From: a virus
Taxonomy: Duplodnaviria; Caudoviricetes
DNA length: 64,000 nucleotides
Virus record (IMG/VR): IMGVR_UViG_3300030372_002840
Location: 6,831-70,830 of that record
Reading direction: 5' to 3' (one strand)
Position 1 is the first letter of the stretch; each line of letters opens with the position of its first letter. Position numbers and translations under genes: made by a program. This document shows positions 53,225 to 64,000 of this stretch, piece by piece. The notes under the pieces were generated by a model. The model searched no databases and was not told where the DNA came from. It was given only the letters and a program-made list of their open reading frames with translations.

Positions 53225-54403
53225 TTAAAGCTGAGTTAATTCCGTAACTTCTTTGCTGGTTTTTTCAGATTTCTCTTTATAATCAGCAACAATTTGTTTA
53301 CGCATCTCAGCCCATTCTTCATCTGTTTTAGCTGCATAAGTAGAACTATGATATATAGATCCATTTACACCTGCCAACGAAGAGTGTACAAAATATTGAA
53401 GACATCTAGCTGCACCTGTTTCATCATCAGGTACTGCACCAATATGCATTGGGTCTACAAATATATTATGTATCTCACCACTTATAGAGTCAATATATTC
53501 TAATCCACCAAAGTGAAGACCTTTAACACATGATACACGATCATTAGTGTTAACATAGTCCCAACCAGGTAAACGATGAGTACAACCAACTTTTATAAAG
53601 TGACATGGTTTAGCATAACCATTAGTCCCTTCACAAAAGAAAGCATCACCACTTGAACCCATAATAGCGGGTTGAAATAGTCTATCTTCTACATGTTCTG
53701 GTAATCCATCTGACTCTATTTCACCAGTGTCAACATTAAAAGTTCTTTTGTACCTTGGTACTTCGTGAACTTCACCGTCTTCACTTTCTTGAAATTTAGT
53801 CATGATTTCAGTAGATACTTTATATCCATTTAATAAACCTTCTTTGGTTATCTTCATTTGATACATAGTAGCTCTTCTTTCAGCAACTTCTTCGCTTAGG
53901 CCTTTCTCTTCCATTAATTCTTTCTTTAATGTAGGGTGAACATACCTAAGATTAATATAGTTAAAGAATCTTTCGCAAAATTCTTTTCCCCAGCCTTTCT
54001 TCATTTTAGTGCGAAGAACAGGGTTTCTTAACCATCTAGTCCACATTTTAACTAGCGGCATAAAATCTAATCCTTTGTCCATAGACTCATAGATTCTTTC
54101 TACCAATGCTTCTGGCATAGGTATAGACGATACTACACCATTATGTTGTAAGAAGAACTCACCTGTACTTTTATTTACATGAATGTGTTCACACTTATCT
54201 TGAACGGTTTTAGTATAATCTTGAATAGTCAAAGGCTCAAAAGTGTCTATTATACTTTTATATGCCTCCATAGTTTGAGCTTCATTAGCTTTATCAGCAA
54301 GCTCTAACATTTTTGCATAGACTTCTTTGTTGAAGTCTACGCAAAATGTCTTATCTCCATAAGATCCTGAGATCTTATCATCAATTACATTTATTGAAAT
54401 CAT
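53225..54403 (-). CDS. rIIB: rIIB-like protein
   Basis: WTRWLRNP, KVGCTHRLP, CVKGLHFGGLEY, FVDPMHIGAVPDD...RCLQY; ATGA-coupled downstream of rIIA. Confidence 0.75.
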   Translation of the reverse strand: MISINVIDDKISGSYGDKTFCVDFNKEVYAKMLELADKANEAQTMEAYKSIIDTFEPLTIQDYTKTVQDKCEHIHVNKSTGEFFLQHNGVVSSIPMPEALVERIYESMDKGLDFMPLVKMWTRWLRNPVLRTKMKKGWGKEFCERFFNYINLRYVHPTLKKELMEEKGLSEEVAERRATMYQMKITKEGLLNGYKVSTEIMTKFQESEDGEVHEVPRYKRTFNVDTGEIESDGLPEHVEDRLFQPAIMGSSGDAFFCEGTNGYAKPCHFIKVGCTHRLPGWDYVNTNDRVSCVKGLHFGGLEYIDSISGEIHNIFVDPMHIGAVPDDETGAARCLQYFVHSSLAGVNGSIYHSSTYAAKTDEEWAEMRKQIVADYKEKSEKTSKEVTELTQL

Positions 54404-57216
54404 TTGTTATTTTTGTTTAAAATTAATAAATTTATAGGTGGTTTCCAACCTAATCTTTGTTTATATTTAAGATAATCATTTAGCTGTTTTGAATAATCAT
54501 CACCTGTATCAGAATCTTGTATTGAAGATTTAATATCGTCCATTCCATCAAGAAATACAGATATAGGTTCTAAGTATAACAACAAATCTTCATAAGCTAT
54601 AATCATATCTTTATCTATAACACTATTACATGTTACATCTGTAAATACAAACAGCTCTTTAGACTTAGCAGTGATAGCATCTGGGTCATCCTGATTTAAA
54701 GAGTCAAGAAATTTATGAAATTCTATCATTTTATTAAACATCTTCATTTGAGGCTTATCTAACCAATTCTTAATTGAATAAGTTCCTGTTGTAGAATGAC
54801 GATATTCTGTAATTTCTTTATAATTATCATACATCTCTTTATTGACAAGTTTCATCTTTTCCATAAAATCAGCATTTTCAAATCGCATACAATAACCAGT
54901 ATACCATCTTATAATAGCAGGATCTACAGAAACATGATTATCATCAGTAGCTGTATAAAAGAATTCATCAATATGCTTACAGTTAGGGTTAGATGCCATA
55001 TGTTTGGCTGTCTTCGCATTAACTCTAAGTAATTGAGGTCTATCCCAATCTAGCTTTTGATTCTTAGTCCAACAATCATTAGGTTCATCACCATAATAAG
55101 ATCTAACAGGAGGATATTCCCAAAAATATACAGGATTATCATCTTGATCATCATAAGCACTTCTATTAGTACTCCATACTTGCTTATGAGTAGGATTCTG
55201 AAGTTCAAGAATATTAGCAGCTAGTATTAATGATCCTTCATCTTCTGTAGTACCATAATATGTAGTAGTTTCAGTATTCATAAGGTCAGAGGTTCTAGGC
55301 TCTACTTTATCCCAAATGTATCCAGATTCGCTTCTACCGCTAGAATAACGACCTTTAGTACATTGACGTAGGGTATATGCTACCATACGCTCTTGTATCT
55401 TACGTCGCTCCTCAGCGCTCATATGAGACATTGCAGCTACTTCCTCTCTTTGTTTAGCTATTTTCTTAAATTCTGTTAACCAGTCATCTTCTACTTCAAT
55501 ATCTTCATAATATTTAACACGACTAGACTTACGAAGTTCAGCAAATAAAGCTTTTACTCTATTTTTTTCTTTAGTATAAGCATCCATTTGCTTCTGTCTG
55601 TCTGTGTCATCAACTATTCCACCTATTGCAGCAATTCTTTCAGTATCAGTACCGTCGTGTTCAGATATAACATATATAGTTTCACCTTCTTGTAGTTTTC
55701 TGATAGCATATGCATCTTTCTTCCAACTATAATTAGTTTCTAGTTCTTTTATATATATATTATGGTCCTTATGTCCAAAACTGTCCCAATTCTCAAGCTT
55801 TTCTCTTTTAACAGTTTCTTTCTTAGTACTCCAATCTTTATCAATCCAAATCTTTTTAATATCTGTCTTTTTACCAAAGACTTTATTAAACTGACCAAAT
55901 TTAAGATCTGTATTACCAGGAAAATGAGGAGATAGCATATCCTTGTCAACTATACTTGATAATTTACCAAGAACAGTATCAGAACCTGCATCATTCATAA
56001 CAGTTCTACACTTATGCATCCAATCTACAACATCAGTTTCTTGCATTTCATTCTGAACAATCTCACTAGCTTCTATACCTGCACGATTAATTAGTTCCTG
56101 CACATACTTCTTAGTAGCTTCATTCCATATAACCTTTTCACGGGACGGAGTTACATCCACACCCTCTTGAAGAACAATTTCTTCACCAGTGTCTGGATCT
56201 CTCATCACTTGTCTCATAGGACATTTAAATGCAATAGCACCCCATAAACCTTCCATCTCTAATTCTCTAAAATTAATATGGCCGTAGTTAATACCTGTAG
56301 TAGCGTTTTCATCTTTTACTATTACAATGTGGGGTCTACTAAATACATAACTGTCAGAAATAATAAGATTCTTAGAGTTATGCAATACTTCAGCATGAAA
56401 GTTTTTTTCATCCTCATCACCATCTTCATCGATGACAGTAAAATTGACATTATCAATATAAAGTAATTGTTCTTCAACAGCATCTTGAAACCGAGAACGA
56501 TTGTGCCTCTTTACTCCAAAACTCACTTCAGTATAGTTATAATTATTTACCTCTTCATAGTATACCTTAGTACCATCTGAAAATATTATAAAAGGATTTT
56601 CTTTACCAGTTTCTAAATTAAACTTAGGTATAATAAAATCTGTTTTATAGTTGTAACAATTACATTTAAACTTTCTACCATTATGTACAGTTTCTATAGT
56701 ATAGAAATCAACGCCTGTTGAGAGTGCGACTTTTGCACCCAGCCCAAATGCGCCAAAATTCTCGCTAGTATTTCTTTTCGTAGAATAACCTAGCTCTAGA
56801 ATTCCTTCCATTCTTCTATCACCTATACCAACACCTTGGTCTTTGACAGTAAATGTATCACAAAAGCCTGTCCCTTTATTCTCTTTGTATAGAAGATAGA
56901 CTTTAGTTTCTGTTGTATTTAAATGTGACAAGTTATAATATGAAAGATCAAAGTTACTATCTACGTAAGCTTCTCCTTCCCGCTTTATATAGTAGTCGTC
57001 GACTTTCTTTGTCCCTTTCAATATTTCTATAGCCATTTCTTTCTCACGTTGAGAGTCACATGCATTTGTAGTTAACTCCCTAACCGTTGATGGGATAGGC
57101 TGAGAATATTGAGAAGCTTGAAGAATATCAAAGACTAGCTTTTCAGCGCCTTTATTTATTTTCTTCTTAACACCCTCTTGTCCTTGGATGTCGCGATCAA
57201 TAGTTTTAATACTCAT
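54400..57216 (-). CDS. rIIA: rIIA-like protein (N-terminal GHKL ATPase)
   Basis: YSQPIPSTVRELTTNACDS, VKDQGVGIG, GYSTKRNTSENFGAFGLGAK, VDVTPSRE. Confidence 0.8.
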   Translation of the reverse strand: MSIKTIDRDIQGQEGVKKKINKGAEKLVFDILQASQYSQPIPSTVRELTTNACDSQREKEMAIEILKGTKKVDDYYIKREGEAYVDSNFDLSYYNLSHLNTTETKVYLLYKENKGTGFCDTFTVKDQGVGIGDRRMEGILELGYSTKRNTSENFGAFGLGAKVALSTGVDFYTIETVHNGRKFKCNCYNYKTDFIIPKFNLETGKENPFIIFSDGTKVYYEEVNNYNYTEVSFGVKRHNRSRFQDAVEEQLLYIDNVNFTVIDEDGDEDEKNFHAEVLHNSKNLIISDSYVFSRPHIVIVKDENATTGINYGHINFRELEMEGLWGAIAFKCPMRQVMRDPDTGEEIVLQEGVDVTPSREKVIWNEATKKYVQELINRAGIEASEIVQNEMQETDVVDWMHKCRTVMNDAGSDTVLGKLSSIVDKDMLSPHFPGNTDLKFGQFNKVFGKKTDIKKIWIDKDWSTKKETVKREKLENWDSFGHKDHNIYIKELETNYSWKKDAYAIRKLQEGETIYVISEHDGTDTERIAAIGGIVDDTDRQKQMDAYTKEKNRVKALFAELRKSSRVKYYEDIEVEDDWLTEFKKIAKQREEVAAMSHMSAEERRKIQERMVAYTLRQCTKGRYSSGRSESGYIWDKVEPRTSDLMNTETTTYYGTTEDEGSLILAANILELQNPTHKQVWSTNRSAYDDQDDNPVYFWEYPPVRSYYGDEPNDCWTKNQKLDWDRPQLLRVNAKTAKHMASNPNCKHIDEFFYTATDDNHVSVDPAIIRWYTGYCMRFENADFMEKMKLVNKEMYDNYKEITEYRHSTTGTYSIKNWLDKPQMKMFNKMIEFHKFLDSLNQDDPDAITAKSKELFVFTDVTCNSVIDKDMIIAYEDLLLYLEPISVFLDGMDDIKSSIQDSDTGDDYSKQLNDYLKYKQRLGWKPPINLLILNKNNK

Positions 57217-57559
57217 TTTTTATAAATTTTAATAGTTTTTTGTAATATTTTTTCTGTTCTGTAACTAGCTCCCATTCCTTTGCAGGATGAATTCTATTTT
57301 TAACAGTATATCCGTAGATATAAGAGGTTGAAGGCAAACCTTCCTGCAACCTTTCTCCATACCAGTCTCTTTGCTTAGAGGTATAAAAGTGATTAGGGAA
57401 TTCCCAATAATATAGTATCCACCCATTAGCTCTATTCTTACGTTGTTTAAATGCTCCCATATAATGACAGCTAGAACCGTAAGATACTCTAATCAAATCG
57501 CCTGGCGTTAACCGCTCTGCCCATTCGTGGACAGGAGTGGTTGACTCCATGTGATTCAT
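57206..57559 (-). CDS. Hypothetical protein
   Basis: 117 aa ORF that fills the operon with small overlaps; no recognised motif. Confidence 0.5.
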   Translation of the reverse strand: MNHMESTTPVHEWAERLTPGDLIRVSYGSSCHYMGAFKQRKNRANGWILYYWEFPNHFYTSKQRDWYGERLQEGLPSTSYIYGYTVKNRIHPAKEWELVTEQKKYYKKLLKFIKNEY

Positions 57560-57560
57560 T

Positions 57561-58013
57561 TCATAAATTTTTAATTATTTCTATAGTTTCGAGTACCTGT
57601 TTTTGATTTTTAGGTACAAAGAGTTTGCAATCAGGATTAGTTTCCATTAAAAGCTTCTTAAACATTTTCCACTTAAGTGGGAATCTGTCATTAGCATAAC
57701 CTTTACATTCTATAATCCAGTCACGTTTAGGGCAAAGAAAGTCAGGCGTATATGTTATTGCTCTAACCTTTTCTTCTCCTCTATTTCTATATCCTTTTGT
57801 TGATTGTTGATAAGCATCTGAAGTATAATAGAATCCATCAAGAAGTGTGTATTTTTCACTTTCGTATTCTTGTTTAATACCAGCTTCTTTTAGCTTTCTA
57901 TAAGTAAATGCTTCTAATTTTGATCTAAATTTTATTCCGTCTACTTCTGTTTTCTTACTCTGTATCTTTCCTTTCTTCCGTTTTCTGGTTTTTGATCTCG
58001 CGTATCTTTTCAT
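57561..58013 (-). CDS. PD-(D/E)XK endonuclease (T7 endonuclease I / Holliday-junction resolvase-like)
   Basis: DGIKFRSKLE, YESEKY, ITYTPDF, IIECKG. Confidence 0.8.
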   Translation of the reverse strand: MKRYARSKTRKRKKGKIQSKKTEVDGIKFRSKLEAFTYRKLKEAGIKQEYESEKYTLLDGFYYTSDAYQQSTKGYRNRGEEKVRAITYTPDFLCPKRDWIIECKGYANDRFPLKWKMFKKLLMETNPDCKLFVPKNQKQVLETIEIIKNL

Positions 58014-58968
58014 ATATAAATGTTTTTACTTTTTCAAACCCATGAACGACAATGGCGTCAGATATGTCCTTTGCACCCCAATCACTTGGGATATATAGAT
58101 TATCTAATTGATATTCACGACATATCTTTTTAGCCATTGCCTGTCCGGGGGTATCATTATCGTAAAAGATAATTACTTTTTTAAATCTGTTTAACAACAA
58201 CTGCATTTGCACTCTGCTGGGTACTTGCATTTCGGACTGCAACGCAACTCCGCACAATTGCATGGCGAACAGGCACATAACATCCTTAAGGGAAGATGTA
58301 ATATAAAGGAGCTCACCCTTATCAGGAAGTTGATTGTAGCCCTGTATGATTTTTTTATTAGTGTTGCTAAACCACTTAAGATCTGTTTCATAAGGCGCAT
58401 AAAGTTTAAATTTGTTACCGAACCTAAAGGCATAAGTTATTGTTTTACAAGAGAATCTGCTCTCGTTAATCCAATAGTAGTCTATGGGCTCAACTGCAAA
58501 GGTAGTTAAAATTTCCTTAGTTAATCCAAATTTCATCCAAAATATTGCATCTTTAGTATACCACGGCCTCCTTTTCTTTTTGATTACAGTGACTTTTTTG
58601 TCAATCTCTTGTTTACCATACAGTTTAGGAGTCTTGGATTGCACTATTCCATTCGTACTTGCCAGTTTAAGATTAAAATCAGTGCTAATTCTAATTAAAG
58701 CTTCAGTAAATGTAACACCATACTTAAATTGAACATAACCAAAACAATTAAATGTGTGGTCTGGGTATCCAAAATCTTTGTATAGTAAATTACCATTATA
58801 GTTAACAATAGAAGCTGAAGGTCTTTTATCTTCTCTCAGCTCACTGCAAAACTTTTTATTAAGCTCTATAAATCTAGGACAATAAAATTTAAATATATCA
58901 AACTCTGTTATTTTTTCTAATATTACATCTGTATGTAATATATCATTACTTGGTCTTGATGTTATCAT
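57955..58968 (-). CDS. dnaG: DNA primase (DnaG-like, crAss type)
   Basis: CSELREDKRPS...YKDFG...NCF N-terminal domain, Toprim LYITSSLKDVM...FYDNDTPG, KDISD; start reassigned to ATG 58968. Confidence 0.82.
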   Translation of the reverse strand: MITSRPSNDILHTDVILEKITEFDIFKFYCPRFIELNKKFCSELREDKRPSASIVNYNGNLLYKDFGYPDHTFNCFGYVQFKYGVTFTEALIRISTDFNLKLASTNGIVQSKTPKLYGKQEIDKKVTVIKKKRRPWYTKDAIFWMKFGLTKEILTTFAVEPIDYYWINESRFSCKTITYAFRFGNKFKLYAPYETDLKWFSNTNKKIIQGYNQLPDKGELLYITSSLKDVMCLFAMQLCGVALQSEMQVPSRVQMQLLLNRFKKVIIFYDNDTPGQAMAKKICREYQLDNLYIPSDWGAKDISDAIVVHGFEKVKTFIYEKIREIKNQKTEERKDTE

Positions 58969-58984
58969 ATCTATGTGTGTTAAT

Positions 58985-59099
58985 AAGAAAAAGGAGACAC
59001 CTTGGGGCTCTGCTTCCATTATTTCCGCTACCCAGGTCCATAACGTCAGTGTCATGATTAACGTAGACTCCGCATTCTTCAGAGAATCCCCTATTTCTT
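58985..59099 (-). ncRNA. Candidate switchable structured RNA immediately 5' of primase
   Basis: 14-position closing helix with one mismatch; competing GGGG/CCCC + CUCUG/CAGAG helix; hairpin CAUGAC/GUUAUG. Confidence 0.45.
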
Positions 59100-59100
59100 T

Positions 59101-59210
59101 ATAGTAAGTAAAGGATGAGTAAGCACCCTTTACTGTAAACTAAATTTATTAGCTGGTTTATTATGTCCTTGCGGGCCAGCCAATAACTCCTTCTTACTAA
59201 GGCTTACTAT
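59101..59210 (-). ncRNA. Candidate four-way-junction RNA with loop-loop kissing
   Basis: P1 8 bp, P2 4 bp with loop AGUAAG, P3 11 bp, P4 10 bp with loop CUUACU; G.U pairs favour the minus strand. Confidence 0.6.
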
Positions 59211-59217
59211 TATCCCG

Positions 59218-59991
59218 CTAGTTTGAAAATGGTAATTCTTCAGTATTATTACTATCTACTCCCCACTCTTCATTCTCGTCAGAATCTGGAGTAACTACTG
59301 CTAATACTGGTTTGAATTCACCCCACTGAAGATCTGTATTGAACTCAGCGTTAAATGCACCATACTCGTCATTTAATGCTTTTACAAATAAATCATCTCT
59401 TTGTGGCTTAACTCTACCAAACACTCTAGTATAGACTTGTTGATATTTACCATCTTTAACACCAATTAATAATCTAACTTTGTTATCTTTCAAAGCAGTA
59501 ACTAATTGTTTTAGCTCTGTGACATCACCTGTTACTATTTTATCAATAGTATCAAAGTATACATTGTCACCAGGAGCAACATTAGCCCATGCCTTAACAA
59601 AGTTAATTAATGTTTCTTCGCCAGTAAATGCTTTTCTAGATGTTTCAGGCTTTTGCCACCAGTCGTAGCTAGGAGTATCTTCACTCCATGTACCTTGACC
59701 TGTAGCATTTAACCATTGAAACTTACCAGTCTTGCTAGTTCTGTGCTTATTCTGCATTAAAATTTCTAATCTAGTTGTTAGATCTTCATTTTTAACCCAA
59801 AATACTAGTTTAAAGTAATCTTCACCATTTAATTCTAAATGATAGTTAGGTTCTTGTTTAACTTTTATATCCATTTTATGCAATTCATCCATTGTAGGAT
59901 TAACTGCCATGATATTAAAATTACTTAAACCAGAATAGCTTTTAATACTATTCATTACCTCTTCGTTTGAATTGTTGCTGTTTATAGCCAT
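59218..59991 (-). CDS. crAss-like putative ssDNA-binding protein
   Basis: YSGLSNFNIMAVNPT, KTGKFQW, acidic C-terminal tail ending EELPFSN; position between the AAA ATPase block and primase. Confidence 0.6.
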   Translation of the reverse strand: MAINSNNSNEEVMNSIKSYSGLSNFNIMAVNPTMDELHKMDIKVKQEPNYHLELNGEDYFKLVFWVKNEDLTTRLEILMQNKHRTSKTGKFQWLNATGQGTWSEDTPSYDWWQKPETSRKAFTGEETLINFVKAWANVAPGDNVYFDTIDKIVTGDVTELKQLVTALKDNKVRLLIGVKDGKYQQVYTRVFGRVKPQRDDLFVKALNDEYGAFNAEFNTDLQWGEFKPVLAVVTPDSDENEEWGVDSNNTEELPFSN

Positions 59992-60011
59992 TTTATATAA
60001 ATTTTTTAATA

Positions 60012-60443
60012 TTAATAATCTTGTTCATTGTACGTATCTGCTCTATCTTCTAAATCAATAGTTTCTCTAATTACGGACTCGTGCTCTATTTCAGAGACCT
60101 GCTCAGATGTTCCAAACTCTTGAATCTGATCTTGAGCATCCATCATTTGTCTGCCTTTCATCTCTTCATCAATAGCTTCTATTAAATCTACCTGTCCAGG
60201 TAATACATCTGGATTAGTATCATCTATAAAGTTAAAAGATAACTTCTTAACTCGTTTAGCTTTTTTACCTTTTAATGATGGGTGATCAAACATTTGTTTA
60301 ACTTCCCATGCTTGTAAATCATACTTAACTTTGATACCAGTTCTATCTATACCGTTTTCTAGATCTTCTAAGACCATTGATACAGTAATAGTAGCAGGAG
60401 TTGTACCTTTCTCCTGTTGCGGATTGTTTCTCATTTCAACCAT
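60012..60443 (-). CDS. Conserved hypothetical protein
   Basis: ITVSMVLEDLENG...MFDHPSLKGKK followed by an acidic tail. Confidence 0.5.
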   Translation of the reverse strand: MVEMRNNPQQEKGTTPATITVSMVLEDLENGIDRTGIKVKYDLQAWEVKQMFDHPSLKGKKAKRVKKLSFNFIDDTNPDVLPGQVDLIEAIDEEMKGRQMMDAQDQIQEFGTSEQVSEIEHESVIRETIDLEDRADTYNEQDY

Positions 60444-60461
60444 TTCTAATAATTTTAAGTG

Positions 60462-61160
60462 TTAATCAATAAATATTTGTTTCCAATCAAGAGTCATATC
60501 TTGTCCCTTGAGGTGATCACAACGTGACCCTGCGACTATATCTCCTTGAGAATTAAATGAAATTTTAGTTTCATCATTATCTCTGTAGATATAACCAATA
60601 GCGTCAGCATTAGCACATGTTATCTGCTTAATCTTACCTGTTAAATCAAGATCTTTAGAAGAGACTTCTTTCCCTTTCTTATCAATCATCTTGTCTTTTA
60701 GGTGACCAACCAATATAACATGGTCTGCCAACATGTTTAACCTGTCCATCCATTTCTTAAATGCCATTCTAAGATATAAATAGCCAGCACCGTTAGGCAA
60801 TGATAGCACTGAGGTACCTTTGTTATCTTTATCAAAGTTTTTACCCATAGGTGTATTTTGATAAATCTTTTTACCTTCATGCTCGCACCACTCTTCAAGC
60901 TTTGTGACTGTATCTACAGCTACATACTTATACGGTTTCTTGTTTTGCATAATTGCTTTACCGACCTCTGCTAGTTGTCCTAGATTAGTAGCTTTTACTT
61001 TTAAAGCTTCAACCATATCAGAACCTTCTTCAAGATCTATAATTAAACAGCCTTCTAATTTACTTAGTGCTGTTGTTTTGCCTATCTTAGGCGGGCCATA
61101 AATGACCATGTTTTTGGGAGACTTACGTAAAGCCTTCACTTTAGTTTTTGGTAATTCCAT
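60462..61160 (-). CDS. AAA_24/Sak4-like ATPase
   Basis: IYGPPKIGKTT Walker A, IIDLEEG, VAVDTVT, ILVGH, ADAIGY. Confidence 0.82.
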   Translation of the reverse strand: MELPKTKVKALRKSPKNMVIYGPPKIGKTTALSKLEGCLIIDLEEGSDMVEALKVKATNLGQLAEVGKAIMQNKKPYKYVAVDTVTKLEEWCEHEGKKIYQNTPMGKNFDKDNKGTSVLSLPNGAGYLYLRMAFKKWMDRLNMLADHVILVGHLKDKMIDKKGKEVSSKDLDLTGKIKQITCANADAIGYIYRDNDETKISFNSQGDIVAGSRCDHLKGQDMTLDWKQIFID

Positions 61161-61161
61161 G

Positions 61162-62016
61162 TTAAAATATATATCTAATTGTGTTCCAAGGTATCACTTC
61201 ACTGTGAACAGCTCGGAACCGGTTAATTAATTCTCCTTTTATACGAGATTTGTACCTAATATTTTTACCTCCATATTGAGATATCTTAGGTTCTTGCCAT
61301 TGTGATGTCCATAAATCATCTTCTGCTTTAGGGTTATCTGTTAAGTTATATATATGTCTATTTTCATTATGTGTTAAAAATATACACTCAGCCAGTACTT
61401 GGTCTTTATAACTAACATAATCGTTAACCATTTCAAACAGTTCTCTATAATCTTTAAGCCATCCATTATATATAATAATAGGGCTGTAGTTTATATGTAC
61501 ATCATAACCTGCATCAATAAAAGCATCAATAGCTTTAATACGATCTATAATTTTAGATGTATTAGGCTCATGTATGTCAGCTTTATGCTGAGGCATAAGA
61601 CTAAATCTAATTCTAATTTTACCTTGAGGATCAAATGCTGTAAGGTCAGGGTTTACATATTTAGTTGCAAAACTACCCATAGCTGTCTCATGGTCTCTAA
61701 AGAATTTAAATATCTGTTGCCACTCGTGATACTTAGCATGAAGAGCAAAGTCTTCGTTGCAACTAATATCATAAGTTATATAACTTTTATGTGTTTGATT
61801 AGGTTTTTTAACTTCAGTAAACCAAGCATGATTGTTTATAGATGTTAATATATCTGCTGTATTTTTAGCTACTGATAAACCTACAGGTTTATTACGCTTC
61901 ATATAGCAATAAGAACAATTATATAAACAACCATGCCCAAAACTTGGGGATATATAATCTGTTGATCTACCTGATTCTCGTATTTTAAAAGATTTTCTAT
62001 TTACTTTTTGTATCAT
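61162..62016 (-). CDS. splB: Spore photoproduct lyase (radical SAM)
   Basis: GCLYNCSYCY (C30-C34-C37), SCNED (C86, equivalent of the H-donor Cys), FATK, RIRFSL, EPNTS...DRI...AGY...SPII, YGG..IRY. Confidence 0.85.
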   Translation of the reverse strand: MIQKVNRKSFKIRESGRSTDYISPSFGHGCLYNCSYCYMKRNKPVGLSVAKNTADILTSINNHAWFTEVKKPNQTHKSYITYDISCNEDFALHAKYHEWQQIFKFFRDHETAMGSFATKYVNPDLTAFDPQGKIRIRFSLMPQHKADIHEPNTSKIIDRIKAIDAFIDAGYDVHINYSPIIIYNGWLKDYRELFEMVNDYVSYKDQVLAECIFLTHNENRHIYNLTDNPKAEDDLWTSQWQEPKISQYGGKNIRYKSRIKGELINRFRAVHSEVIPWNTIRYIF

Positions 62017-62951
62017 CTTTCTTGTATTGTAAAGGTTGACATCTCTGCTTCATAAGGTATCATACCTAATAAACCATCACGATTTTTTTCTACATGACAT
62101 GCTAGTAATCCTACAGGATCCTCATCGCAATATGTCTTAGTAATTCCATATATATCGTAAGGTCTATTTAGTATCATAACTACATGTGCATCTTGGCCAA
62201 TGCTGTCACCGCCAAACAAATCTGTCAAGAGTGGCTGATATTGATTTTTAGCTCTGTGCTCTTGTTCAATGTTTCTGTTTAACTGAGATAGTAATATATT
62301 AATGACATCCATTCTAGCTTGCATCCACATACAACCTTTAGAAATTTCATTTAATTTCTGTAGTTCTGTGTGCTCACTAGATCCTCTAATTAATCTAGAG
62401 TGGTCAAATATATTTACAACTGTAGCTTTAGGCCTATTTAAAAATACATTCTCATTTGTTTGTTTAATGTACTCCATTGTTCTAGGAATACTATTAAAAT
62501 ATATAGGATATTTTCTAAACTTATCAACACGTTTGGCATAACTTTTGAAGTCTTCTTCGTTAAGCCTTGCCTCAACTGATAGTAATTCTAATATCTCTTT
62601 CTTAACTTCTTTTGATGCACTACGCATAATCTGCTGATAACCAGGCATCTCGAAACTCCAATACAATGTTATTATTTCTTTGCCTTGATTTTGATCTAGC
62701 ACATCAAATACTAGCTGATTACTAAATGCAGATTTACCAACACCTGGTCTACCAGCTATTACATACATCTTACCTCTTTGTAATCCACCCAATAAATTTT
62801 TATTAAGTCTTGGCCATTTTGTAGGATACACATCTCTGTTCCCGTGCATAGCCGACTTTACAATAGATATAGATTTATCTACTGCACTGTTGATAGGTTG
62901 AAAACCTCTCTCTCTTAAGAAATCAAAGTTTCCTTGTGATACGTCTGTCAT
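62013..62951 (-). CDS. dnaB: Replicative DnaB-like helicase
   Basis: IAGRPGVGKS, SFEM, IFDH, LSQLNRNIE, DSIGQDAHVV, HVEKNRDG; start at ATG 62951 preferred over 62981. Confidence 0.9.
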   Translation of the reverse strand: MTDVSQGNFDFLRERGFQPINSAVDKSISIVKSAMHGNRDVYPTKWPRLNKNLLGGLQRGKMYVIAGRPGVGKSAFSNQLVFDVLDQNQGKEIITLYWSFEMPGYQQIMRSASKEVKKEILELLSVEARLNEEDFKSYAKRVDKFRKYPIYFNSIPRTMEYIKQTNENVFLNRPKATVVNIFDHSRLIRGSSEHTELQKLNEISKGCMWMQARMDVINILLSQLNRNIEQEHRAKNQYQPLLTDLFGGDSIGQDAHVVMILNRPYDIYGITKTYCDEDPVGLLACHVEKNRDGLLGMIPYEAEMSTFTIQER

Positions 62952-63468
62952 CTTTAGTGTCATTAATGTTAATATCTTCATACTTTTCCCAAGTACAATT
63001 GTTTATCCATGTTTCAAAGTTCTGCATATAACCTAAATTATGTTGCTCACTTTCTAATTGTGTTTTTAAACACCGCATAATAAACTTATGCATGTGTGGC
63101 TTACCAGAAACAATCTTTTTGTATTTGTTTCTTGCTTTCTTATTGCTTGCAGCTTTAGGATTCTGAGCTCTTAGCACTCTAACACCTCTAGCAGACTCTA
63201 CCTTAAATGGGTATGCATCTACAAGCTCAGTAAACATAGAATCAAAATCAGTTACAAATAAGTCCCTAAACTTTTGTTGTACAACATGTTTAGTCTCGTC
63301 ATTTTTATCTAGTACAACCCACCCATCTACTTCTAATCTAGGTGATACACGTAAAGAGATCTTCTCTAAATAAGAAAATCCCTTTCTATGTAATATGTAC
63401 AGATAAACAAAATCATCAGGAGTTAAATGCGCATCTTCTAATAAAGCCAAATCGATTTGTATTGTCAT
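62923..63468 (-). CDS. Hypothetical replication-associated protein (helicase loader/organiser-like)
   Basis: 181 aa overlapping the dnaB start; FTELVDAYPFKV...YMQNFETWINNCTWEKY resembles the C-termini of phage replisome organisers. Confidence 0.45.
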   Translation of the reverse strand: MTIQIDLALLEDAHLTPDDFVYLYILHRKGFSYLEKISLRVSPRLEVDGWVVLDKNDETKHVVQQKFRDLFVTDFDSMFTELVDAYPFKVESARGVRVLRAQNPKAASNKKARNKYKKIVSGKPHMHKFIMRCLKTQLESEQHNLGYMQNFETWINNCTWEKYEDININDTKDDRRITRKL

Positions 63469-63998
63469 TTTATGTCTGTTAAGTTATCAATCCAGTTCAC
63501 GTTAGTTAAACCTTTAACTGACGACTTTAACCACTTTTCTTCTTGAGTATCTTTTATATATAAGACAACTATAGTTCCAGTTTTATCTTCTTGGAACCTT
63601 AGCAACCTACCGACTCGTTGAATCATAGTCAAAGATTTGCTTGTTAATCCACATATAATACCCATATCTGCATCAGGCACATCAAAACCTTGATTTAATG
63701 CTTTTGTAGAACATAATACTTTTACTTTATTAGTTCTAAAAGACAATAATGCAAGATCTTTCTGTTTTTTAGTTCTCTTGGAGTGATAAGCCATAGCTAA
63801 GTCACCTAATGAATCTGATATTTTATCAGTAAATTCGTTAGCGCCTGCAAAGGTAAGAATTTTACTAGTTAATTTAGAAAAAACTATCTTTTTAATAGTA
63901 TCTATTTTATTAATAGCAAAATCAACAACAGCTTTACGTTGTCTTATAGCTTTATAAAACAATACAGCCCATTGCTTTTCATGCCCACCAACATTACT
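63465..63998 (-). CDS. Superfamily II helicase, C-terminal part (5'-truncated by window)
   Basis: KILTFA, YHSK, VLCSTKALNQGFDVPDAD, MIQRVGRLLR (motifs IV-VI); frame open to the window edge. Confidence 0.85.
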   Translation of the reverse strand, partial: SNVGGHEKQWAVLFYKAIRQRKAVVDFAINKIDTIKKIVFSKLTSKILTFAGANEFTDKISDSLGDLAMAYHSKRTKKQKDLALLSFRTNKVKVLCSTKALNQGFDVPDADMGIICGLTSKSLTMIQRVGRLLRFQEDKTGTIVVLYIKDTQEEKWLKSSVKGLTNVNWIDNLTDIK

Positions 63999-64000
63999 GC

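Follow-up and report, generated by a model that had tools for sequence, protein, structure and literature searches.

Viruses can encode enzymes that mend the UV damage of their own genomes after entry, such as T4 endonuclease V (DenV) and the virus photolyases, and DenV is expressed from the very damaged genome that it repairs. Reports of the spore photoproduct (SP) concern DNA that was dry, frozen, in A-form or bound by SASP, and the literature ties it to dry or desiccated DNA as well as to spores, with their A-form DNA, dehydration, dipicolinic acid and SASP binding. Its lyases include SplB of Bacillus subtilis and the related enzyme of Geobacillus thermodenitrificans (structures 4FHC and 4FHD), which belong to the equivalog family TIGR04070 and for which the roles of individual residues were taken from the Geobacillus structure paper (PMC3467042). 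A further family, TIGR03886 (lyase_spl_fam), includes proteins of non-sporulating bacteria such as Myxococcus, Curtobacterium, Methylobacterium, Hymenobacteraceae and Trueperaceae. From phages, gp53 of Pseudomonas phage M6 has been described as a radical SAM isomerase with the fold of spore photoproduct lyase (SPL), acting on glycinyl-thymine in the course of thymidine hypermodification (PMC8989533). No publication on phage-encoded SPL-family enzymes was found in the literature searched.

Here we analysed a stretch of 64,000 nucleotides (in the following, the window) from a 70,830-bp IMG/VR virus record with an estimated completeness of 81%, which encodes a short SPL-family protein on its minus strand (Table 1). 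A sequence-only reading of the window had described the gene as a spore photoproduct lyase embedded in the replication operon of a phage, and most of this description agreed with the coordinates: the ORF contains both CLYNCSYCY and SCNED, its ATG (62016-62014) shares bases with the stop codon of the DnaB-like ORF in an ATGA at positions 62013-62016, and a single nucleotide separates its stop codon (61164-61162) from the ATG of the next ORF, the AAA ATPase of that reading. The location in a replication/recombination operon was likewise borne out by the DnaB-like and Sak4-like neighbours and by the rest of the minus-strand block, which comprises an SNF2-type helicase C-terminus, a Toprim primase, a DUF1064 resolvase, rIIA-like and rIIB-like genes and a 5'-3' exonuclease. 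The N-terminal extension of the Bacillus enzyme, noted as missing, is indeed absent, as the alignments begin at profile position 63-65 and at Geobacillus residue 68, and upstream of the ATG only 11 further codons are open.

Table 1 Features of the SPL-family gene and its immediate neighbours in the window.
Feature	Position	Strand	Description
SPL-family ORF	61162..62016	-	284-aa radical SAM protein, short SPL family member without N-terminal domain (PF20903; closest NCBIfam TIGR03886)
CLYNCSYCY codons	61903..61929	-	residues 30-38; [4Fe-4S] ligands C30, C34, C37, plus Y36 and Y38
SCNED codons	61750..61764	-	residues 85-89; C86 corresponds to Geobacillus Cys140, D89 to SAM-binding Asp143
Beta-hairpin codons (predicted)	61252..61296	-	residues 241-255; tip Q247-Y248; invariant R254-Y255
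DnaB-like replicative helicase gene	62013..62981	-	PF03796, 113.7 bits; phrog_19
Sak4-like / AAA_24 ATPase (single-strand annealing type)	60462..61160	-	PF13479, 94.1 bits; phrog_124

Profile searches placed the protein in the Pfam family PF20903 (SPL) with 86.8 bits, well above the gathering threshold of 27 and covering profile positions 65-337 of 338. The best-matching family was TIGR03886 with 311.2 bits over positions 63-346, below its cut-off of 437.55, and the SplB equivalog TIGR04070 (photo_TT_lyase) gave 82.2 bits over positions 65-337 against a cut-off of 400. The score below the TIGR03886 cut-off can be attributed to the absence of profile positions 1-62; full-length proteins of Rufibacter, a Trueperaceae MAG and Myxococcus reached 490-600 bits on the same profile. 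While the radical SAM profile PF04055 on its own matched weakly (17.4 bits, cut-off 29.5), assignment to the radical SAM superfamily follows from C30, C34 and C37 together with a barrel fold in the model that resembles radical SAM structures. The name spore photoproduct lyase given by the sequence-only reading was thus appropriate with regard to fold and Pfam family (TM 0.88 and PF20903), but not with regard to orthology: on these profile scores, the window protein is a member of the TIGR03886-like branch and not an orthologue of Bacillus SplB.

AlphaFold2 modelling with 62 homologues gave a mean pLDDT of 96.1, and comparison of the model with known structures using Foldseek returned the SPL structures 4FHE, 4FHF and 4FHC at TMq 0.87-0.88 and an rmsd of about 2.5 Å, with other radical SAM enzymes at a TM of 0.55 or less; as modelled, the fold is specifically SPL-like. 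In addition to the radical SAM partial TIM barrel (TMq 0.88), the phage protein shares with SplB the CxxxCxYC-Y motif, the hydrogen-donor cysteine, both tyrosines, the SAM-binding D/K/S, the dihydrothymine contacts R/E/Y and a tyrosine-tipped hairpin (Table 2). In contrast, it is 22% identical to SplB, lacks about 61-67 N-terminal residues, i.e. most of the alpha/beta domain with its four-stranded sheet and three helices, carries neither Arg273 nor Lys309 at the aligned columns, and is encoded in a replication operon instead of a sporulation regulon.

Table 2 Residues of Geobacillus SPL (roles from PMC3467042) and their counterparts in the phage protein, mapped by profile alignment to 4FHC over the whole protein; PDB chain numbers equal native numbers + 27.
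Role	Geobacillus	Phage
[4Fe-4S] ligands	C90, C94, C97	C30, C34, C37
Cluster environment	Y96	Y36
Proposed radical relay	Y98	Y38
H-atom donor	C140	C86
SAM binding	D143, K174, S195	D89, K119, S139
5'-dihydrothymine contacts	R193, E268, Y339	R137, E210, Y282
Loop holding 3'-thymine	S76-K77-P78-S79	S15-G16-R17-S18
Hairpin tip	R304-Y305	Q247-Y248

Conservation within the marine phage clade followed this map closely. CLYNCSYCY was invariant in all 121 phage-clade proteins, as were C86 and D89 of SCNED, and the proposed radical relay (Cys140, Tyr98 and Tyr96 in Geobacillus) is accordingly represented by C86, Y38 and Y36 throughout. The counterparts of the lesion-base contacts were similarly constant (R137 and E210 in 121/121 proteins, Y282 in 120/121), Q247 was present in 114/121, and the other mapped residues that were counted were invariant or nearly so. 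Over 62 diverse family members, K119, R137, E210 and Y282 were at least 90% conserved. The column of the hydrogen-donor cysteine varies in the wider family, and in Clostridium SPL this cysteine is located elsewhere in the sequence (PMC3467042). In the model, strands 241-245 and 251-255 form a hairpin with an aromatic tip, in which Y248 corresponds to Tyr305 and Arg304 is replaced by Q247. Arg273 and Lys309, which contact the intra-lesion phosphate in Geobacillus, align with T215 and N252 in the profile alignment, with H216, K251 and the invariant R254 close by.

As both the catalytic and the thymine-binding residues are kept, the protein probably serves the phage in light-independent DNA repair, a function that we regard as probable from sequence and model. 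In particular, we favour with moderate confidence a stand-alone SPL-fold radical SAM DNA lyase that would reverse SP-type thymine adducts in phage DNA, since the Fe-S/SAM site, the Cys-Tyr relay, the three dihydrothymine-contacting side chains and the tyrosine-tipped hairpin are all retained. In such a scheme, the virion would acquire lesions in sunlit water, which is the step with the least support. After infection, the gene would be transcribed jointly with dnaB and sak4 and the enzyme made early together with the replication proteins, whereupon it would bind phage DNA and flip out two thymines joined by a methylene bridge, as 5-thyminyl-5,6-dihydrothymine or a closely similar adduct. The 5'-deoxyadenosyl radical would abstract the C6 hydrogen, the bridge would then break, and return of a hydrogen atom by C86 would yield two thymines again, with no need of light or excision. 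The proposed logic of own-genome UV repair would be analogous to that of T4 DenV and virus photolyases, although these are a glycosylase/lyase and flavin photolyases, respectively, and unrelated to a radical SAM enzyme in fold and chemistry. Searches of the window's record and of four complete relatives gave no match to photolyase (PF00875) or T4 endonuclease V (PF03013).

Several points stand against this reading. For the TIGR03886 branch, long or short, no member has a demonstrated substrate, the aligned columns have lost the phosphate-contacting Arg273 and Lys309, and the adjacent paralogues of cells, described below, together with a tandem pair of short paralogues in one marine phage lineage, suggest different specificities rather than plain SP repair. 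In the literature searched, we found no report of spore photoproduct in hydrated packaged phage DNA. Transcription data consisted of two 151-nt contigs inside the gene from one metatranscriptome, which may derive from DNA and are too little for a claim.

A genome scan using an alignment of 8 closer sequences yielded 589 relatives. Cellular proteins with 41-50% identity and the same conserved residues occurred in Hymenobacteraceae (Rufibacter, Pontibacter, Adhaeribacter), in Spirosoma and related Cytophagales and in Mucilaginibacter, and further in Methylobacterium, Curtobacterium, Microbispora, Myxococcus, Trueperaceae and a Pleurocapsa MAG. Most cellular relatives possess at least 54 extra N-terminal residues, and many of the bacteria with full-length relatives are non-sporeformers. 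Short forms are also found in cells, namely in Legionella, Odyssella and other Paracaedibacteraceae, Rickettsiaceae, Cesiribacter and Neolewinella; a prophage origin of these was considered and rejected, the Legionella and Odyssella genes being located in ordinary chromosomal contexts. In a tree rooted on TIGR04070-type paralogues, a quick search that leaves the deep order unsettled, the long cellular forms constituted one clade (SH-aLRT 99), while the short forms were distributed over several deep lineages including the marine phage clade, which falls outside the long clade. Three Curtobacterium loci (L151, L154, L156) are placed inside the long clade. For the non-sporulating Curtobacterium aetherium, UVC-dependent up-regulation of a protein named 'spore photoproduct lyase family protein' has been reported (PMC12029717); this is the product name of TIGR03886, and the C. 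aetherium protein was matched by name only.

Around the cellular homologues, the genes in the 35 loci examined were diverse apart from a TIGR04070-type paralogue, ranging from a short-chain dehydrogenase, cytochrome c peroxidase and M28 peptidase to a DinB-fold protein and Usp, and a repair operon was not apparent. A search for LexA boxes, with patterns for three types of consensus and covering the upstream regions of 76 cellular genes, gave one match versus about 0.4 to 1 expected, which is at chance level and therefore provides no signal. An SOS-regulated 'splB' has been described (PMC3323433), which may belong to another radical SAM family. In 6 of the 35 loci (from Rufibacter, Pontibacter, Catalimonadaceae, Cyclobacteriaceae, Trueperaceae and Terriglobia), however, the TIGR03886-type gene adjoins a second SPL-family gene scoring 315-324 bits on TIGR04070; the Rufibacter pair occupies L085:4533-5612 and L085:5806-6849. 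As genes of both types coexist, the two branches are unlikely to be interchangeable or simple substitutes for one another.

This arrangement bears on an alternative that shares the chemistry of the favoured reading and differs in the lesion, in that enzymes of the TIGR03886-like branch would act on an SP-related adduct that those of the SplB branch repair poorly. Candidates are an inter-strand or non-adjacent 5-thyminyl-5,6-dihydrothymine, which has been reported from DNA that is dry or in A-form, and an analogue containing cytosine or uracil. The side-by-side paralogues of the six lineages would fit such a division of labour, as would the tandem short paralogues, one without the hydrogen-donor cysteine, on the marine phage contigs L168 and L169, together with the changes at the Arg273 and Lys309 columns and the loss of the N-terminal domain. 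A passage in a review (PMC3231322, citing its reference 40) also mentions high inter-strand photoproduct yields in A-DNA. On the other hand, R137, E210 and Y282 as well as the loop S15-G16-R17-S18 are conserved as expected for a canonical thymine pair, and adjacent paralogues could be explained equally well by a heterodimer or by different regulation. We consider a different lesion possible, though doubtful.

A second alternative is DNA base modification, in which the enzyme would build or tailor a modified thymine against restriction in the manner of M6 gp53. Both are phage-encoded SPL-fold radical SAM enzymes, gp53, for which SPL served as the model, has thymine derivatives in DNA as its substrates (PMC8989533), and the SPL gene of the window is part of a DNA-metabolism module in which several adjoining ORFs have no family assignment. 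However, gp53 has 480 aa, is encoded inside a kinase/transferase/PLP cluster that is lacking here, and shows no significant sequence similarity to the window protein, the resemblance being limited to 22 residues around the Fe-S motif (BLASTP E 0.03). The 5-hmdU DNA kinase (PF18748) was absent from five complete relatives and the record of the window, and the amino acid:DNA transferase (PF18724) from four complete relatives, whereas both families were recovered from M6, the positive control. Moreover, the SPL gene relocates alone and without a fixed partner, relatives with 41-50% identity reside in ordinary bacterial chromosomes, and the residues binding an unmodified dihydrothymine/thymine pair are conserved. 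Given the lack of gp53 likeness and partner genes, the occurrence of relatives in cells and the conservation of the contacts to the thymine pair, a role in modification is quite unlikely. Very unlikely is a non-DNA target such as a nucleotide, small metabolite or host protein, as for an anti-defence or metabolic radical SAM enzyme merely of SPL fold, because the protein retains the beta-hairpin with its tyrosine tip and the residues by which the DNA enzyme contacts thymine, and SPL itself is the closest fold by a wide margin, even though the short form of other phages is surrounded by anti-defence-like genes (Acb2/Tad1 hairpin, Macro, dGTP diphosphohydrolase-like).

Reversal of SP-type adducts in phage DNA remains the reading we prefer, and marine viral contigs frequently carry the gene proposed to serve it. 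The window protein matched more than 3,500 protein clusters (90% identity), the best 120 of which were 71-100% identical and mostly 284-287 aa in length; 667 matches were obtained among 1.84 billion cluster representatives at 50% identity, and 454 stretches in IMG/VR. Several of the best 120 clusters bear Tara names. Pairwise dN/dS values against 11 viral homologues ranged from 0.09 to 0.15, and judged by these comparisons the gene is under purifying selection.

The position of the gene varied among phages. It was located between dnaB and sak4 in the window and in ten further loci (L001-L006, L049, L060, L063, L065), directly after rIIA in others (including L011, L020 and L022), after a DUF1064 gene in a third group (including L013 and L031), and between an SNF2 helicase gene and a 181-aa ORF in L007 and L061. 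In all cases it was on the strand of the replication module, and a constant partner was absent. Comparison of L007 with the window revealed 78% identity for the SPL proteins versus 27% for DnaB and 32% for the primase, and the L007 gene groups with the window gene in the tree (SH-aLRT 99). In one seawater contig, the start of sak4 was joined straight to the end of dnaB, with exactly the SPL ORF missing. The varied sites, the decoupling of SPL similarity from the phage backbone and the SPL-less seawater contig led us to the conclusion that the gene acts like a one-gene cassette that divergent marine crAss-like phages exchange. Repeats bracketing the SPL gene in the window were limited to short, chance-level ones.

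The phage itself, which is uncultured, is crAss-like, as follows from the Crass_capsid major capsid protein in its record and from two giant ORFs (2220 and 4686 aa); a crAss-type capsid gene is also present in a complete 129-kb record (G003). Near-identical DNA was present in marine, marine plankton and seawater metagenomes from several studies. The known hosts of crAss-like phages are Bacteroidota, and together with the marine plankton source this makes the non-sporulating host assumed in the sequence-only reading a reasonable inference. No tRNA genes that could serve as a host clue were found within the window. A tblastn search of the protein against deposited phage genomes (50,697 records) gave a single weak match with 25.8% identity in a gut phage, megablast of 9 kb against deposited phage records gave none, and a cultured phage carrying a close relative was not found among the deposited phage records searched.

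In surface seawater, sunlight counts as a main cause of the inactivation of viruses, whose recovery is commonly attributed to photolyase and excision repair of the host. That phages carry an abundant, mobile and conserved gene for a putative light-independent SPL-type lyase implies a class of lesions in virus DNA that is uncounted in current viral decay models. A further-reaching proposal, which we consider unlikely, is that the short lyases would form an old, chiefly virus-borne lineage repairing photolesions peculiar to very densely packed DNA, for example SP-type bridges that link non-adjacent thymines or, within the capsid, adjoining duplex segments, that SP-type damage would account for a significant share of the virus decay driven by sunlight in surface waters of the ocean, and that the paralogues co-occurring in some bacteria and some phages would split intrastrand from other SP-type lesions between them. 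Being a 284-aa SPL-fold enzyme without the N-terminal domain, the phage protein is also a natural probe of the role of this domain and of the substrate range of the TIGR03886 branch.

The replication block of the crAss-like phage in the window ends with rIIA-like and rIIB-like genes, and in many relatives the short gene of the spore photoproduct lyase (SPL) family lies immediately after rIIA. Inspection of the seawater metagenome X18 revealed one contig in which the start of sak4 is fused to the end of dnaB and precisely the SPL open reading frame is missing (window 61133-62016); this contig stems either from natural variation in the presence of the gene or from a relative that has the other gene order. 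The seawater metatranscriptome X20 contained two 151-nt contigs identical to the interior of the SPL gene (window 61244-61519), while almost nothing else within window 57000-64000 was covered. These contigs hint weakly at expression of the gene, carry-over DNA being the other possible source.

A tandem pair of short SPL-family genes, spaced by approximately 450 nt, is present on each of two marine phage contigs, L168 (105 kb) and L169 (83 kb). One paralogue (287 aa) shares 52% identity with the window protein and is devoid of the H-donor cysteine (DIGNGEDF), while its partner (284 aa) is 73% identical. Proteins of the phage clade (284 aa, 69-72% identity) were also detected in two contigs filed under metagenome-assembled genomes (MAGs) named 'Rickettsiales bacterium' and 'Bacteroidetes bacterium UBA10404'. 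Both proteins cluster with viral contigs in the tree. The two contigs are probably of phage origin and were sorted into MAG bins.

Short SPL-family genes were also observed in other genomic settings. In Candidatus Odyssella thessalonicensis, such a gene is located just downstream of an S-adenosylmethionine synthetase gene, which encodes the enzyme that produces the cofactor of the SPL-family protein. On another phage contig with giant ORFs (L170), it is flanked on one side by a gene of the Acb2/Tad1-hairpin family, a family of anti-CBASS/Thoeris sponges, and on the opposite side by genes that match a dGTP diphosphohydrolase-like domain and, weakly, a Macro domain.

Beyond phages, a TIGR03886-type gene is adjoined by a TIGR04070-type (SplB-like) gene in six non-sporulating bacteria or MAGs, namely Rufibacter, Pontibacter, Catalimonadaceae, Cyclobacteriaceae, Trueperaceae and Terriglobia.

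Location of SPL-family genes and of the rII-like genes of the window phage
Feature	Location	Remarks
rIIA-like gene	window 54400-57216	938 aa, HATPase_c_3
rIIB-like gene	window 53225-54403	
Tandem short SPL-family pair	L168:6557-8725	
Tandem short SPL-family pair	L169:1558-3726	
Phage-clade SPL in MAG-filed contigs	L083, L084	L083: contig CBDHFF010000001.1, 120 kb
S-adenosylmethionine synthetase and short SPL-family genes	L173:5297-7876	Candidatus Odyssella thessalonicensis
Short SPL-family gene and neighbours	L170:6552-10036	
TIGR04070-type / TIGR03886-type pair	L085:4533-5612 (-) beside L085:5806-6849 (+)	
Further TIGR04070-type / TIGR03886-type pairs	L094, L103, L112, L143, L158
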